DNA of 64,000 nucleotides from Octopus vulgaris (Eukaryota): positions 122,264,001 through 122,328,000 of the forward strand of contig OX597819.1 in the NCBI GenBank assembly GCA_951406725.2, written 5' to 3'. The position numbers and the translations under genes were made by a program. The number at the start of each line of letters is the position of its first letter. Within the stretch, counting starts at the first letter, position 1. The notes under the pieces were generated by a model. That model searched no databases. It was not told the DNA's origin and saw nothing but the letters and a program-made list of their open reading frames with translations. This document shows positions 14,259 through 23,044 of this stretch, piece by piece.

Positions 14259-15373
14259 CTAGCTGAAGGTCATCCGCTCTACGCGTGGGTAAGAGTGTGG
14301 TATATATATAAATGTATACAAATTATATATATATATATAAATACAGATATATACACTTTGTATATATACATTATATATACATATTTATATATAGATACAC
14401 ACACACACACATATATAAATTAACCCAATAAATATCTGATTCATAATATTTGTTCTCATGATTGTGCGCTTCCAATTATTGTTGTTGTATGTGTAATATT
14501 CCGGTACTTCAGGGTAAATGAGAGTAGCAGCAAACTCATTGACTGAACACAATTTAAAAAACGCTGTAAGTGTAGTCCCTTTTAGATTTTCAATGACTTG
14601 ACGTGCATTTTTCTCTGTGAAGTAAACCAGCTGTCTCTTCTGTAAATGAACATTCAGGTAGAAAACTGATGGTGAGCTTAGATGAATCTCGTATCGAAAA
14701 ATGCGCCACGCTGCATAATTGGAGGATACATACCTACCCAAAACGAATTGTTTAATTTCGTCATGTCTAAGGTCTTCATCACTGAACACAAACACGGCCA
14801 TATCATCGCCCTTATTAATGTACTTGTAGAGGTATTGTATGCATCTCACCGAACTGCAGTACTCAACATTAATGTGTGCATTAAATGTTTTGGAAAGCAA
14901 AGGGTTGAATGGAACAATCCAGGCATTATCAACATCGAATGTTATTAACCGTTGTCTAACTCTAGCTGTGTGGCCATCCAAACCTGTGTGGTGGTGGTGG
15001 CGATGATAATTGTCTGTATGAATGCAGACAGATGTGTAGAGAGAGAGAGTGTGAAAGCACTGTAGAATGCCGTTTGACGAATCGATGTTATATATAGAAA
15101 GTGATGGGAAGGGAGGAAATAGAGTGAGTGAGTGAGGAAGACAGATACATAAAAGACTGAGAGTGGACTTGTCAAAGTGGGTTTTTGGCCCTAGCAACGA
15201 CACCTTTTAAGATAGGGATTTCTAACGTAGCCCACGGGCATCGTCACCTCATTTTACATGTTCCTGTAAATTTTGGAGTCAATCCGACGGGATGTAGTGG
15301 CGTTGAAAGCAGGCCAAGCGGTTGAGTCAAACAAACAAACAAACTTTTCGCATTTCAGTTTTATAAATAGAGA
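14259..15373 (-). mobile_element. Internally deleted Helitron carrying a Rep/helicase fragment
   Basis: 5' TC at 15373, 3' CTAG at 14259 with a GC-rich subterminal segment, A|T insertion site; ORF VDNAWIVPFNPLLS...HINVEYCSS...YLYKYINKG...RYVSS..AAWRIF (Helitron Rep motif with catalytic tyrosines). Confidence 0.9.
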
Positions 15374-16208: not shown

Positions 16209-16544
16209 CACATATGTGTCGGTGGCACGTAAAAAGCACCATCCGAATCGTGGCTGAAGCCAGTGCCGCCTCGACTGGCTTTCGTGCAGGTGGCACGTAA
16301 AATGCACCAATCCGACCGTGGCCGATGCCAGCCTCGCCTGGCACCAGTGCAGGTGGCACGTAAAAAGCACCCACTACACTCACGGAGTGGTTGGCGTTAG
16401 GAAGGGCATCCAGCTGTAGAAACATTGCCAGATAAGACCGGAACCTGGTGCAGCCTTCTGGCTTCCCAGATCCCCGGTCGAACTGTCCAACCCATGCTAG
16501 CATGGAGAACGGACGTTAAACGATGATGATGATGATGATGATGT

Positions 16545-17911
16545 TGTTCCAGTTTGGTGAGGACTTCTATTTTTGTTAGGCAGTCTTCAAACATGCCTGT
16601 GTGATTTGGGGCATCCGGTGGGCGATATGTAGTACATATGACGATATTCAGTTGTCTTGTGTGTACAATTTGAGAGTCACACACTGAGTTTGAATATGAG
16701 AGCAGGACCTGGGGCGTAAGGTCATCTCGGATGTACACTGCAACTCCAGCATCACTCCTCCCTTTTCTATCTGAGCATATGACAACATATTGCGGTATGT
16801 TTATTTCTGCATCCCCTATATCGGGGCCAAGATACGTTTCTATGAGTGTCATGCATAGAGCTTGATTGCATGCCGCAAGGTCTCTCAGGAATGAGATTTT
16901 GCTTTTACAGTTGCCACGCAGCAGCCCTCCCACGTTCAGTAGAAATATTTTTGTGACGTGTGTGTTGGTGTTTGTGGTGGCCACCCTGCATCTGTTGGTG
17001 ATGGCCTTGTGTGGTGGTAGTTCCAGCTTTGTGTTTGTAGCCAGGTCAGCTGCTGGACAATTCTTTGTGCCATGCACAAAAAAAGATTGCTGTTCAGCTG
17101 CTGCCCTTCTCACATCTGGGTGAAGCTGGCCATTTCTTGGGCCATGCAGTATCCTTTTTGGACCGTGCACTACATCCGCATATTGTCTTTCGGGAGTAGT
17201 CAGTGCGCCATTTTCCCTTCTTTGGTATTTTTCTTTTTCTTTTTGTCCTCCTCATGGGAAGGATTGTTGTCTTGGGCCCATGCGGTTTTGGCAGGGCTTC
17301 TGATGTGCAAAACGACAGTTTGCACCATCGTCGCCATGCCAGCAGTTTCCTTGTAGGTAAAATTTGCAGATACTCCTGTTTTTGCCCTTGAAACTCCTGT
17401 AGCTCTTGCTGGGGCTCTTCTGTTTTTTTCTGAACAGTTTTTGTTATGTTCTTTTTATTTTTCTTTTCTTTTACCTCTTGCTTCTCATTGCCTTTGCCAG
17501 CTTTTGTTCTGTCGGGTTTAAGGTGCTTTCCTTTTTCGGCCATCACACCCCTTTGGTCTTCAGGTGTGTTGGGGTCTGAGCAAGTGCCATTGTTTCCCTT
17601 GGTTGCAGGTCTCTCGGTTGTGTCTTTGGATTTGCTCTTCTGAGGGATTGTTGGGTCCTGGATGCTTTCTCCATCCTTTTTGTCATCCCTGGTGCAGTCA
17701 CCTCCCAAGATGATGTCAAGTGTATCCATATGTTGTCTAATTAGAGCATGTGAACGGAGGAATTCGCATTTCTTCCGCTCTATCTGGGGGGTGGTCCTGG
17801 AGAAATCATTACTTTTAAGTGCCGCTGCAATGATGTTGAGGAGTCACCTTCAGCAATCTTCCAGGCACGGACAAACAATTGCAATTCTTTTGTGGACCAG
17901 TTCTGTGACAT
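16545..17911 (-). mobile_element. LINE copy B, homologous to copy A: Myb/SANT-like + CCCH ORF1 and partial APE endonuclease; 3'-truncated
   Basis: MSQNWSTKELQLFVRAW /frameshift/ IIAAALKSNDFSRTTPQIERK...HMDTLDIIL; CKFYLQGNCWHGDDGANCRFAH; APE LLNVGGL, LIETYL, SDRKGR..GVAVYIR, YRPP. Confidence 0.85.
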
Positions 17912-17929
17912 CTTTATTTGGGATACAGT

Positions 17930-18256
17930 GAGAGAGTGAAATAGAGGAACAGAGAGAGGAGGAAAGATAAGGAGATTGACCTGAGAGGGAGAGGAGAGAA
18001 GAGAAGAAAAAAGATGAAGGGGAGAAAGGGGGTGGCAGATTAACCGGGGAGAGAGAGAGAGAAACAAGGGGATTGACCTGAGAGGAGAGAGAAAGAGTGG
18101 CAGATCAACAGGGAGAGAGAGCGGAATAGAGGTGTGGTAGAGAGAAAGAAGTAAAGAGACAAAGAGAGGAAGAGAGAGATAAGGGGATTGACCTAAGAGG
18201 GAGCGGAGAGAAGAGAGAAAAAAGAGAGAGGGAGAGAGACAGGGCGGGATAGTGGT

Positions 18257-18310
<54 letters not shown>
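17930..18310. repeat. Purine-rich (GA) tract with three GATTGACCT-anchored subrepeats, ending in pure (GA)n
   Basis: Direct reading; lies between LINE copies A and B. Confidence 0.8.
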
Positions 18311-18314
<4 letters not shown>

Positions 18315-18334
18315 ATAAAAGTTAAAGAGAACAG

Positions 18335-21300
18335 TGGTTCTATGCTTATTTGCATAAGAATAGAATACTTTTGGGTTCTGTTTGATGTTTTTGATTACCC
18401 ATTGTTCCTCCACAGCTCTTTGATTTTCAATGGAGGTTTTCATGTCGGCCTGCAGTTTTTCCAACTCTAGCCTTTTCATTGTTGTTGAATGTGGATGTTG
18501 TATGTGGGAATATTTTAATTAGTTGATTTTTTTATTGAGTCTTTTGATATGCTTGATGAGTGTTTTTTTCTTTTTAGGGAGCCGGTTTCTGTTTGTGTTA
18601 GTAGATTTCGTGGGAGTGTGTTTAGAGCATGTATAGGTGACAATGTTCTCAAAGTGCTGCCATGCGGTCTCAATTTGGGTGGAATTGAGAGTAAAAGACC
18701 AGTCGATGAAAGACAGATCCTTTCTGATTGCTCCCCAGTCCGCTTTGTGGAAGTTTATGTTGTCAAATGAGTGCCATGGAGTGGGATTGGCTGGTTTGGT
18801 TTTTATATGTCGGGAATTAAAATTGCAAAGTACCATGTCGTGGTCTGAGAGGAGAGTTTTTTCAACTGAAATACTGTGAACGGAGCTAGAGTGGTTAATA
18901 TTAGATCCAAGATCGTTTTATTCTGTCTTGTTGATTCGAGCACTAGCTGAGTCAGGAAGAATTTATCCATTAGATTAAATAGTAATTCTGCTGCTGCTTT
19001 ATCTGATGTAGAGCATTTGCCTAACTTCAGAGTATTTGTGGGCCAGTTTATATGAGGGAGGTTAAAATCACCCATCACTAGTATGTTTGCGGAGTTGTAT
19101 TTTTGAAGGAAAGGCTTGATTTTGTTAAGGCACTCTTCAAAGCACTTTAGAGGTGCTTGGGGAGGCCTGTAAAGACCAACAATGATTATGTCTTTGGCTT
19201 TGTTGAACAGTGATATAGATTCACAGTAGCCATTGGAAAATATGTCCTTGGCATCAAGTGGAAAGGAGTCATGGATAAAGATGGCTGTCCCTCCTTTATT
19301 TTGGTCTGTGCAATCTGCACGAACAATGGTGAAATCTTTTATTTTCACCTCGGCAAATCCATATGGGTGTTGTTCAGGTGAGTTTCGGTAAGGATAAAGA
19401 AAGGGAAGCAATGTGCCCTTTCGGCAAGCCAACTCTTTTTATATGGGATCTTCCATTTTTGGGGCAGTGATTGACGGGTTGATGCCACGTACATTTAACA
19501 GGAATGTCGAGGTCAGGGTAGTTTGATGTTTACATTGTTCTGAGTTATGTTTTATGTTGTTCAGTGGTAACAATGTGGGTAGTTCTTGTATGGAGCTGTG
19601 TGTGTATGATTTTCTTGTTGGTAGTGGGTGTGTGGTCCTTGTGATTTGCATAAATGGTTGCTGACAGCTCGTTGGATCTCCTGGCTTAGGTCGGCTTTCA
19701 TATTTTCTAGGTAAGTCAGTAAAAAAGAGTTGCCTCTTTGGTTTGCCACTTGGTCAGAGGATACATAGTTCATGTTTATGTTTTTTGGTGTTATGGTTTT
19801 TTCATAGTTCTGTCTTCGTTGTTTGATTGTAGGAGGGGAAACGTGGTTGTATTTTGTTTTTATTGTTGTCGAAAATCTCCTCTGTTGCTGTTTATATTTA
19901 TTTTGTGATCGTTTTGTGCCCTTCAGATGGTGGTGGTTGCATTCTGGGTTCAAGCACATCCTTAGTGACACAGAAGTTTGGCACAGTTTAGGATGGAAGA
20001 AGGTGCATCCATTGCCTTTTGTGCATCCATATTTGGGATCAGGACCATGGACTCTGTATTTAGGACAGTATTTGGGGTGGAGGTGAGGGCAGTTTTTTCC
20101 CGTTATACCATATGAACAGGCGCCCTTAACAAGTCTGCGACATAAAGTAGGATGGAAAAAAGCACAGCGTCCCTTGTTGTTGGTGCCGCTGGGGCCAAAT
20201 CTACAGTTGCCTTGAGAATGGTAACGACAGGGTGTTTGACGTAGGTGTAGTAGAGGTTTTTCTATTCTGGCAGGCTCGTTGGTCAGTGGTCCTATTGTAG
20301 TAGCAGTAACAGAGTGTTGTTGTTGTTGCTGTAGCAGCAGTGAAACTTGACTTGCAACAGTATGGCTGGGTGGAATCAGGTCAGATACTGGTGCCAAACA
20401 AGGTGCTGCCAATGTAGTAGCAGAAGCAGGTTGTTGTTGTTGTGACAGTGAGTCCTGGCTTGCCAAGGTAGTGTTGGGTGTAATTAGGTCAGATATCAAT
20501 GAGGATGTTGTTTGTTGTTTGTTGAAGTGACCCCTGACTTGTTGGAGTTGGGTCATTTGGTGCACTACATCCATTGACAAGTATGGCTTCTAGTGTTGCC
20601 ATGTCATCATCATCATCATCGTTTAACGTCCGTTTTACGCGCTAGCACGGGTTGGACGGTTCGACCGGGATCTGGGAAGCCAGGGGCTGCACCAGGCTCC
20701 AGTCTGATCTGGCAGAGTTTCTACAGCTGGATGCCCTTCCTAATGCCAACCACTCCGCGAGTGTAGTGGGTGCTTTTTACATGCCACCTGCACAGTGCCA
20801 GGGGGGTCCGGCATCGGCCACGATCGGTTGGAGCTTTTAACGTGCCACCGGCACGGAAGCCAGCCATGGCGGCGCTGGCATGTGGAAAATAGGAAATGAT
20901 CTTGAGATCTCTTTTATTTTATTTTCGATCTGTTTTACAGATCTGTGAAATGATTGTTTTGCTAATTTTTCAGCGATTTTACTGTAAACATTAGCTTTTA
21001 CACAATCGTTATGGTGAGTGTACCAAGCGTTTATCAGTGCACTGATTTCATTTTCAACCCAGTGGCGTTTTGGAATATTATTGGCCATATTCAGTGGGAC
21101 AGTATTATACACTGTACGCCAGTTATTGATGGCTTGATGTATAAAAGTGAATGCACCGTTGAAAAGTTTGTGCCAATATATTCAGAAATGCATGGCTATA
21201 TCTGGGTGTGTGTGAGAGAATTCAGTGTATTTAGTACAAATCAGAATGAGAAAAGAATTGTACTCACGGGACTAGTTTTAGAACTAGTCTTGGGTTTAGT

Positions 21301-21430
21301 TTTAGTTTATATTTGTTTCTCCAGGTTGTATATAGATTTGTATAAATTTATATCCTCCGATGGTAGTAAAAGAGTAGAATAGTAAAATAGTAGAATTCAA
21401 AAGTTCTGGAACTGAAAACAAGGAAAGTTA
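18335..21430 (-). mobile_element. LINE copy A (APE-type, CR1/L2-like group), 5' half: ORF1 = Myb/SANT-like + 4 CCCH fingers; ORF2 APE endonuclease; no RT; decayed, SINE-interrupted
   Basis: ORF 21112-20884 WVENEISALINAW...KIAEKL...RSVKQIENK; ORF 20580-19561 with four CCCH units; APE motifs LLNVRG, ILTETHL, YRPP, MGDFNLPHINW, LDLIL, SDH across frameshifts; linker KQNPKVFYSY. 5' boundary approximate. Confidence 0.88.
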
Positions 21431-21520
21431 CTGCTGGCTTGAGTTGAAATATGCTTCTTTGGCTACTGACTGGCCAGAGCTATGAAAAGTACGTCTTGTC
21501 ACAACGAATGCCTGGACATA

Positions 21521-21810: not shown

Positions 21811-23044
21811 TATATATATAGATAGATAGATATACACCCATACATATGTGTGTGGGTGGGGTGTATATATCACAGCCTTATCTCAGATTACATTAATCTG
21901 ACAGATATCAGTTTCCAGAAAATATCCCACTGTTTTCACAGATACTCTTTATTCTTATTCTTATACTTTTTTACTTGTTTCAGTCATTTGACTGTGGCCA
22001 TGCTGGAGCACTGCCTCTAGTCAAACAAATCAAACCCAGGACTTGTTTTTGGCAAGCCTAGTGCCTATTCTATCGGCCTCTGTTTTTGTTGAACAGCTAA
22101 GTTATGGGGACATAAACACACCAACATCAGCTATCAAGCGATAGTTGGCGGACAAACACAAACACACACATATACGGTGGGCTTCTTTCAGTTTCCATCT
22201 ATCAAGTCCACTTAGAAGGCTTTGGTTGGCCTGAGGCTATTGTAAAAGACACTTGCCCAAGGTGCCACACAGTGGGACTGAACCCAGAACCATGTGGTTG
22301 GTAAGCAAGCTACTTACCACACATCCACGCTGCATATGTCATTTCAATAGTTATCACATGCTTCCACAAGTCCCACCACCAAAACAAGAGCTATATTCTG
22401 TGGCTGAACTATCCAAAGAATCTTATTACAGTTTGGATAGTTCTTCAGTAAATTTATATATTTGCAATTAATTTGTTGGAGCAAGTCCCACTTTCATACC
22501 TGGGGGGACAGACAGGGACACACACACTATTTCTTGTAAATTTCCAACTTAATTAAGAAGCTGGAATAAGTTGATGAAAACAAGTACAGAACAACTGCTC
22601 TGATAATATGCAAATATTCCAAAATTTAATTAATTAACAAATCATACCAAAAAAAAAAATATTTACAAAAACCTGCCCTTCTTAATACTGGTTTCAAATT
22701 TTGGCACAAGGCCAGCAACACACACACAAACACTCACACACACAAGCAGACACAAACATGTCCCTTCCCTACACACACAATATCCATGAACTCAGGCTTT
22801 GCAACCTCAATTTGCTTGACCGCCAATCAACTTCTCCCTGCCCATACAGTATGTATATACTGTTTCAATGGACATATATATGTATACATTCACACAAAAC
22901 TACACACTTGTATATAAACACATACACACACACACACTCTCACATATAAAACAATGGGCATGAGTTCGCATCTATGCATGTGTGTCTCTGGACGCAGACA
23001 CAAAAACGGAGTGTCATTGTGCATGGGTTGGCACTCTGGATGCT

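Follow-up and report, generated by a model that had tools for sequence, protein, structure and literature searches.

What kind of element joins a Myb/SANT-like domain, CCCH zinc fingers and an apurinic/apyrimidinic endonuclease (APE), and how is the enzyme-coding part of such an element translated? These questions are raised by a stretch of 64,000 nucleotides of the Octopus vulgaris genome (assembly GCA_951406725.2, contig OX597819.1, positions 122,264,001 to 122,328,000 of the forward strand), here called the window. Between 16545 and 21514, on the minus strand, it holds two copies of long interspersed nuclear elements (LINEs), each broken at its 3' end and each containing a Myb domain, one or more CCCH fingers and an APE. 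The comparison with intact relatives revealed that in every family the second open reading frame (ORF2) overlaps the first (ORF1) in the -1 frame, and it suggests that ORF2 is probably translated by a programmed -1 ribosomal frameshift at U_UUU_UU(A/G). The preliminary description of this locus, made from the letters of the window, had recognized the domains and overlooked the conserved -1 slippery junction between ORF1 and the APE frame.

Identity of the elements

Five families, designated A, B, B', C and D, were sampled by five genome searches, each giving at least 150 scored matches (644-1,362 candidates, the matches of related families overlapping). Intact copies have an ORF1 frame of 298-467 codons and an ORF2 frame of 1,019-1,043 codons with APE and reverse transcriptase (RT). 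All three intact ORF2s scanned matched Pfam RVT_1 (E 1e-29 to 1e-31) as well as Exo_endo_phos_2, and the best match in the PDB was L1 ORF2p. With APE followed by RT, dispersed copies, simple-repeat tails and no long terminal repeat (LTR), these are APE-type non-LTR retrotransposons. Fourteen copies of family C differ by 0-4.5 substitutions per kb, one pair being identical over about 3.7 kb; this family has therefore been mobile very recently.

The linkage of Myb to CCCH and APE, on which the preliminary description depended, holds genome-wide. Downstream of the Myb domain, 55 chosen loci contain APE in 55 cases, CCCH in 54 and RT in 48. Whereas this choice was biased towards long frames, the best matches not picked by frame length also have CCCH within 1.5 kb, in 26/29 cases for family A and 11/11 for family B. 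It is hardly conceivable that the Myb segment stands apart from the LINE, as a Harbinger-type transposon or host Myb gene that happens to lie upstream of LINE fragments. The genome does contain stand-alone Myb_DNA-bind_4/5 ORFs (in L097, L098, L100 and L101), but in each of the five families intact copies encode Myb and CCCH in the same open frame, the APE-RT frame overlaps that frame, and the linkage counts are genome-wide; the intact copies refute chance adjacency. A single-ORF organization was also considered, given the frame of 1,439 codons in one locus (L031), and was rejected: intact copies have two frames, and fused copies carry insertions or deletions (indels) in a T run.

The ORF1/ORF2 junction

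For the junction, 80 metagenome loci yielded 15 close relatives; after removal of two near-duplicates and of one locus truncated ahead of the junction, 12 marine loci remained, which together with four octopus families gave 16 junctions. Each was located by amino acids alone, as the first ORF1 Phe-Leu pair after the opening of the -1 frame; that opening precedes the pair by 1-4 codons in octopus and by 1-17 codons in the marine elements. The codon usage at this point is strongly biased. The Phe codon is TTT at 16/16 junctions (background 42%), a T precedes it at 14/16 (background of third-position T 21-25%), and the Leu codon is TTA or TTG at 12/16 (TTR background 14%). After collapsing to 14 families including D, the counts are 14/14, 13/14 and 12/14, respectively. 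The heptamers are T_TTT_TT(A/G) at 10/16, T_TTT_CTN at 4/16 and G_TTT_TTA at 2/16, among elements whose APE identities are mostly 27-62% (70-94% in related pairs). Family D, which was fetched after the pattern had been defined, has T_TTT_TTA in 13/14 loci.

The layout of the two frames agrees with slippage at this site. In all 16 elements the -1 frame is free of stops for the 45-118 codons up to APE, an opening expected by chance, under synonymous recoding, at 0.01-0.55 per element, and 5' of the slippery site it meets a stop about every 5-35 codons. The ORF1 helix past the site is under purifying selection (pS 0.36-0.77 with low pN in five related pairs; dN/dS 0.03-0.07 for the C-terminal helix in four related pairs), while the overlapping -1 frame has dN/dS near 1, that is, no amino-acid constraint, and is still open. 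No AUG precedes the conserved APE Asn at 13/16 junctions, and in family C there is none for 200 codons. Contigs from eight public runs, in which rare variants are dropped and RNA status is guessed, show the same unfused two-frame junction with no indel or splice joint, so the layout is not an assembly error.

Several observations weigh against frameshifting. The binomial p values for the 14 families (5e-6, 2e-6 and 9e-9 for TTT, the preceding T and TTR) are overstated, since the families share ancestry. Half of the marine junctions (6/12) are non-canonical, with four T_TTT_CTN and two G_TTT_TTA. As a protein motif, Phe-Leu is itself conserved, with 114/162 related proteins matching a loose pattern. 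In octopus families A, B, B' and D, APE is preceded by an AUG in its own frame. A conserved 3' stimulatory structure was not found by local folding, with mean z of 0.04 and -0.47 and 1/16 elements below z -2 in each of two windows; nor was any Watson-Crick run of at least 9 found between the slip site and the 3' tip in 15 loci, three of them without a true 3' end.

Some of these points would suit translation of ORF2 by termination-reinitiation or internal initiation near the ORF1 stop, with the T run a by-product of Phe-Leu. Such a route would start at an AUG, or a non-AUG codon, and could use the upstream AUGs of the four octopus families; at 6/16 junctions ORF1 ends with its stop one codon ahead of the APE Asn, no RNA stimulator was found 3' of the slip site, and stop-start coupling is described for SART1 in the available sections of PMC3894237 and PMC3708506. 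We nevertheless consider this route unlikely. It leaves unexplained the TTT at 16/16 junctions, where neighbouring synonymous sites have strongly diverged, and the stop-free -1 frame over 45-118 codons, and the AUGs, where present, stand at unrelated positions (codons 5, 25, 26 and 36).

Joining of the frames at the RNA level, by splicing or by a polymerase that slips in the T run and adds a U, is very improbable. Copies with frame-fusing T-run indels exist (L031, L063, L083-L087, L199 and copy B of the window), so some polymerase does slip there. However, the run is of 4-7 T only, and of 4 in the T_TTT_CTN families, the contigs of the eight runs show no such indel or joint, and the fused family-C copies form no clade and were selected for long frames. 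Programmed -1 frameshifting is the probable route to ORF2.

The HIV-1 gag-pol frameshift uses the heptamer U_UUU_UUA. This is identical to that of octopus families A, C and D and of 6/12 marine junctions, and the octopus elements would resemble retroviruses in making more of a structural protein than of a fusion enzyme; unlike gag-pol, they gave no downstream stem-loop or pseudoknot signal in a folding test that was not aimed at pseudoknots. Among APE-type LINEs, ORF2 translation by way of a -1 frameshift is said to be necessary in Dictyostelium TRE5-A and TRE3-A (PMC5911963, available portion). These two differ from the octopus elements in lineage and host, in their poly(A) tail, ORF2 zinc finger and tRNA-gene targets, and the same portion mentions neither CCCH nor Myb; it describes contacts of TRE5-A ORF1p with TFIIIB, proposed as a targeting guide. 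For Paramecium LINEs, a +1 shift or reinitiation is proposed in the accessible part of PMC5405496. The accessible part of PMC3894237 calls LINE ORF2 translation an open question without frameshifting among its listed options, and for non-LTR elements the corresponding part of the Atkins review names only HeT-A and TART. The conservation of a seven-base site across 14 families makes this question directly testable.

A slippery-like sequence was also seen outside the CCCH elements. L123, L129, L139, L144, L146, L149 and L156 are CR1-like elements outside the CCCH clade, with a PHD-like ORF1 and a -1 ORF2 overlap; A_AAA_AAC lies 5-22 codons past the -1 opening, and the first Met is at or inside APE. 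These elements are mostly interrelated, and Lys-Asn may reflect a motif of the protein. In L122 and L132 the ORF2 frame carries a D(V/I)xxNPGP motif ahead of APE, similar to LINE 2A-type sequences reported in part of PMC3708506.

The Myb/SANT-like domain

The Myb/SANT-like identity of the N-terminal segment is borne out by Pfam, the predicted fold and the ESM Atlas. Against PF13837 (cut-off 27), window copy A scores 43.5 bits, an intact family-A copy (L032) 35.4 and family C 27.7; families B (22; intact copy E 2e-4) and B' (14.1) do not reach the cut-off, and the Pfam scan gave no match in family D. AlphaFold, from an alignment of six sequences, predicted three helices (12-25, 31-41 and 48-74) with pLDDT 87.6. 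The top Foldseek rows are of the GT-1/Zeste type (2jmw, 2ebi and 5cqq; probability 0.97-0.99, E 0.2-0.6), with no row reaching E 0.001. In VIA, GT-1 gave Z 8.1 with a root-mean-square deviation of 3.2 over 68 residues, tied with the DNAJC2 SANT domain. The ESM Atlas leads for the segment score 0.85-0.90, and a PDB sequence search with the Myb profile reached GT-1 only at E 0.13, below spurious S8 matches. The nearest folds are the DNA-binding domains of trihelix GT-1 and Zeste, albeit with 16-20% identity, and a Z of about 8 is a modest value for so small a helical fold.

The octopus domain has a basic character (pI 8.9-9.9, with 5-6 Lys or Arg in helix 3). Purifying selection acts on it, with dN/dS 0.16 for a comparison of two family-A subfamilies; between families pN is 0.28-0.42 and pS saturated. 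The Pfam PF13837 consensus has Cys and Trp in helix 3, and the absence of both from helix 3 of the octopus domain speaks against the Myb assignment.

The stand-alone Myb ORFs mentioned above (L097:5764-6675, L098:5092-6372, L100:2316-4352 and L101:1980-2873) are Harbinger-like or host genes and possible donors of the LINE Myb. In a database search, proteins with the octopus LINE Myb were limited to seven Octopus-named hypothetical proteins, absence elsewhere being weak evidence; our results account for these mis-annotated entries. One Octopus-named gene model of 462 aa (P0272) joins a family-B' Myb segment, at its start, to an unrelated coiled-coil protein; the model may be mis-joined, or else the element was exonised.

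A clade of LINEs with CCCH-type ORF1

The preliminary description had proposed a distinct ORF1 class pairing Myb with CCCH. Myb is indeed unusual, but CCCH is a widespread trait of a clade in which it mostly accompanies a PHD finger. A CCCH-array profile retrieved 1,534 clusters at 50% identity. A word search with the whole ORF1 found one homolog, and the ESM Atlas returned no usable match for it. Pfam was run on 102 of the best 150 clade proteins, with the best five families per protein; PHD-like matches are common there, MBT occurs in two and PWWP in one, and Myb_DNA-bind_4 is among the families listed for none of them. Our own Myb profile reached at best E 0.13 against 162 clade proteins. 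A strict PHD pattern is present in 57/86 long clade proteins, and many of the remaining ones visibly bear PHD. The N-terminus of the PHD-type relatives consists of a helical domain and PHD, rarely of MBT/Tudor or PWWP; P0157, P0249 and P0231 are CCCH-type ORF1 relatives with an MBT/Tudor-like or PWWP reader at this end. The idea that the octopus Myb is a diverged form of the helical domain preceding PHD found no support, with an hhalign probability of 1.3%.

The marine metagenome loci confirmed that the PHD+CCCH proteins are LINE ORF1s. This marine clade (L104-L117; P0124 onward) has the CCCH array, the Phe-Leu helix and the -1 overlap of the octopus elements, forms one RT clade with them and ends in short tandem-repeat 3' tails; it differs in its N-terminus, a helical domain plus PHD with no Myb. 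CCCH-type ORF1 defines a large invertebrate clade of CR1-like LINEs, mostly PHD-bearing. Members of the CR1 group lack an RNase H domain, and their 3' tails consist of short tandem repeats, not of poly-A. The octopus elements have no RNase H domain and carry short tandem-repeat 3' tails, and the CCCH clade groups with elements whose ORF1 and C-terminus look CR1-like; the clade is a putative member of the CR1 group.

The CR1-lineage LINEs with PHD-type ORF1 (types IIIA, IIIB, IC, IIC and V; Metcalfe and Casane 2014, available part of PMC4120745) likewise have two ORFs, APE and RT in ORF2, a modular ORF1 with an N-terminal reader, and reticulate ORF1 evolution. Unlike these types, the octopus elements have tandem CCCH fingers and a Myb domain in the position of PHD. 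The ORF1 catalogue in that part comprises RRM, CCHC, Tnp22, PHD and esterase only, and the octopus ORF1s carry none of the domain sets that define types I-IV (RRM+CCHC, Tnp22, PHD with or without RRM, esterase). In a Pfam scan of four intact ORF1s, RRM, CCHC, Tnp22, PHD and esterase gave no match at E 0.1 in any, although a very remote RRM could escape such a scan.

The view that this architecture had not been described before is upheld within the sources covered, with Repbase and Dfam outside that scope. The words CCCH, myb, SANT and frameshift do not occur in the available main text of PMC4120745, and no such domains stand in its Table 1. Myb has no occurrence in the available texts of PMC4120745, PMC13343379, PMC9115989, PMC10294476, PMC5203782 and PMC3708506, and CCCH none in the five of them that were searched for it. 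A literature search of titles and abstract starts found no Myb or CCCH ORF1 in LINEs and no CR1 slippery site. The octopus ORF1 is apparently an uncatalogued variant within a known kind of element, and it may sit unannotated in Repbase or Dfam; it adds a CCCH-type class missing from the catalogue in the available part of PMC4120745. Zenon is also an invertebrate LINE of the CR1 group, but in the accessible portion of PMC13343379 it has a poly-A tail and no ORF1; the octopus elements, with ORF1 and tandem-repeat tails, are not members of it.

Probable exchange of the Myb module

An RT tree was built by quick methods from 120/133 sequences, the 13 without an RT anchor being left out. The elements with CCCH-type ORF1 form a single RT clade (support 1.00 in one tree and 100 in another). 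Within it, families A and C cluster with elements that carry PHD, and B and B' fall in another subclade. Monophyly of the Myb-bearing ORF2s of A, B, B' and C was rejected by the approximately unbiased test (p-AU 3e-67; 14 rows, LG+G4). Because Myb sits on two non-sister ORF2 lineages and is restricted to Octopus, it most likely spread between these two lineages by module exchange. Myb could instead be ancestral and PHD its repeated replacement, but the occurrence of Myb in Octopus alone would favour transfer.

Insertion into (TA)n repeats

Scored as at least four units within 45 bases of the element end, (TA)n adjoins 38/51 3' ends (A 7/12, B 12/17, B' 2/4, C 17/18), as well as the 5' ends of family C in 14/16 and of family A in 4/9 cases. 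Within these loci the background amounts to 7.9%; two control SINEs (short interspersed nuclear elements) reach 3/14 and 8/22, together 11/36 (Fisher p 7e-5 against 38/51). Since the repeats flank both sides, the data indicate insertion into pre-existing microsatellites. A counterweight is the control SINE that adjoins (TA)n in 8/22 cases, so the preference is partly general. The excess may stem from Myb, from APE or from the age of the copies, and for the target selection suggested as a possibility in the preliminary description it is indirect support.

It is possible, although on balance we doubt it, that target sites are chosen mainly by Myb through direct binding to (TA)n DNA. The repeats on both flanks, a preference common to non-sister ORF2 lineages that share Myb, the low figure of 3/14 for the SINE with a family-B-like tail, and the basic, selectively constrained domain would all fit this. 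On the other hand, there is the second SINE with 8/22, and young copies retain repeats better than old SINEs. The PHD-type relatives (0/4) are uninformative, as their contigs are almost without (TA)n. In known LINEs that target microsatellites or telomeres, moreover, the APE domain sets the specificity. Direct selection of (TA)n by Myb is compatible with the frameshift model.

Proposed mechanism

The scheme that we infer for frameshifting and for the binding functions builds on what was observed: the domains and their linkage, the layout of the frames, the biased codons and insertion sites, and the conflict in the tree. Most ribosomes would produce ORF1p alone, in excess; its CCCH fingers are predicted to coat and package the element RNA, and its terminal helix to oligomerise. 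A minority of ribosomes would slip at U_UUU just 5' of the terminal helix, and the product would be an ORF1-APE-RT fusion that keeps Myb and the fingers and loses the helix. The fused reader, PHD elsewhere and Myb here, may touch chromatin or DNA at the target. Myb most likely replaces PHD as the chromatin- or DNA-contact module, and it may contribute to the (TA)n preference. If true, the physical fusion of the ORF1 reader to the endonuclease offers a simple reason for the swapping of N-terminal modules in CR1-group ORF1s. The full picture is a tentative one that we would not expect to hold in every part: a large undescribed invertebrate LINE clade in which a stimulator-free -1 frameshift would fuse a swappable reader (PHD, MBT, PWWP or octopus Myb) to endonuclease and RT, the octopus Myb version having spread between lineages and steering still-mobile elements into (TA)n, as a natural plug-in targeting system. 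The very young LINE families identified here lie in a cephalopod genome.

Features of the window

The two window copies belong to different families, A and B. The preliminary description had treated them as diverged copies of one family, which their APE domains contradict, being about 35% identical and in different subclades. Homology of the two Myb segments does stand, the copy A piece being 29% identical to an intact family-B copy (pair E 8e-9). Copy A is broken at 18331 and copy B at about 16542, and the RT of both lies outside the window. Table 1 lists the features.

Table 1. Features of the two LINE copies in the window
Feature	Position	Strand	Basis or remark
Copy A 5' UTR (untranslated region), flanked on its 5' side by a (TA)n(GA)n microsatellite	21089..21514	-	alignment to intact family-A copies
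Copy A ORF1 start (ATG at 21088) and Myb/SANT domain (trihelix-type), helices 1-3	20879..21088	-	Pfam PF13837 E 4.2e-11, 43.5 bits, cut-off 27
SINE inside Myb helix 3	20605..20878	.	CATGT duplicated at 20600-20604 and 20879-20883
Copy A remainder of Myb helix 3, then a linker rich in Q/T/S; one stop and one frameshift	20230..20604	-	
Copy A CCCH fingers, four in tandem	19927..20229	-	counted from translation; weak Pfam zf-CCCH
Copy A slippery heptamer T_TTT_TTA in ORF1 frame (Ser-Phe-Leu)	19720..19726	-	
Copy A ORF1 C-terminal helix (FL..M/L..D motif) and tail	19561..19725	-	-1 frame ORF2 linker overlaps
Copy A ORF2: linker, APE, start of tether	18331..19729	-	Pfam Exo_endo_phos_2 E 4e-11; tblastn of intact ORF2
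Copy B 5' UTR, pyrimidine-rich, partial	17912..18310	-	blastn to intact family B
Copy B ORF1 start (ATG at 17911) and Myb domain, frameshift near 17840	17700..17911	-	
Copy B CCCH finger, single	17303..17368	-	Pfam zf-CCCH E 1.4e-5, above cut-off
Copy B slippery site T7G (T6G in intact copies)	17077..17084	-	
Copy B ORF2 linker and N-terminal part of APE	16544..17083	-	broken at second SINE, 16260-16537

The Myb peptides quoted earlier were recovered by minus-strand translation: HWVENE (21064), KIAEKL (20980) and SVKQIE (20941) in copy A, and NWSTKE (17902, frame 0) with IIAAAL (17834), TTPQIE (17795) and HMDTLD (17732) in copy B. The latter three lie in another frame than NWSTKE, in agreement with the single frameshift repair that had been called for in copy B. 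The SINE in copy A, of 274 bases and with more than 20 relatives within the window, is an insertion as proposed, for intact copies such as L032 run uninterrupted across that point. Copy A has a further stop and frameshift between Myb and the fingers. The finger spacings are exact: C7C12C3H, C7C8C3H, C13C5C3H and C8C4C3H in copy A and a single C7C8C3H in copy B.

The fingers were said to be followed by APE. An APE is present in both copies, but it lies in the -1 frame and overlaps ORF1 instead of simply standing downstream. In copy A the -1 frame opens one codon 5' of T_TTT_TTA, and ORF2 carries several frameshifts and stops and ends before RT. In copy B the T run holds one extra T, so the two frames appear fused.

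Further observations

The 3' ends of L040, L073, L079, L093 and L110 have a common motif, GGTG followed by an ATGGCC-like stretch, a hairpin and GAAAC, and then tandem repeats of 6-9 bases; it spans octopus elements to a marine relative. The tail of an abundant SINE resembles the 3' ends of families B and B' (L073, L079), with the same hairpin shape and a different hairpin sequence. This tail occurs at window 21996-22011 and at 15 other sites (16 matches against 0.08 expected), at least one match being a LINE 3' fragment, and the LINE group may be the partner of this SINE.

Several family copies are clustered at G000:C5:118836600-118860000 (L083, L088) with (TA)n between them, and elements are nested within one another in L036, L087 and L095. 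Elsewhere in the window, a frame of 273 codons at 14388-15206 (minus strand) has no Pfam match; it resembles a Helitron Rep/helicase fragment.

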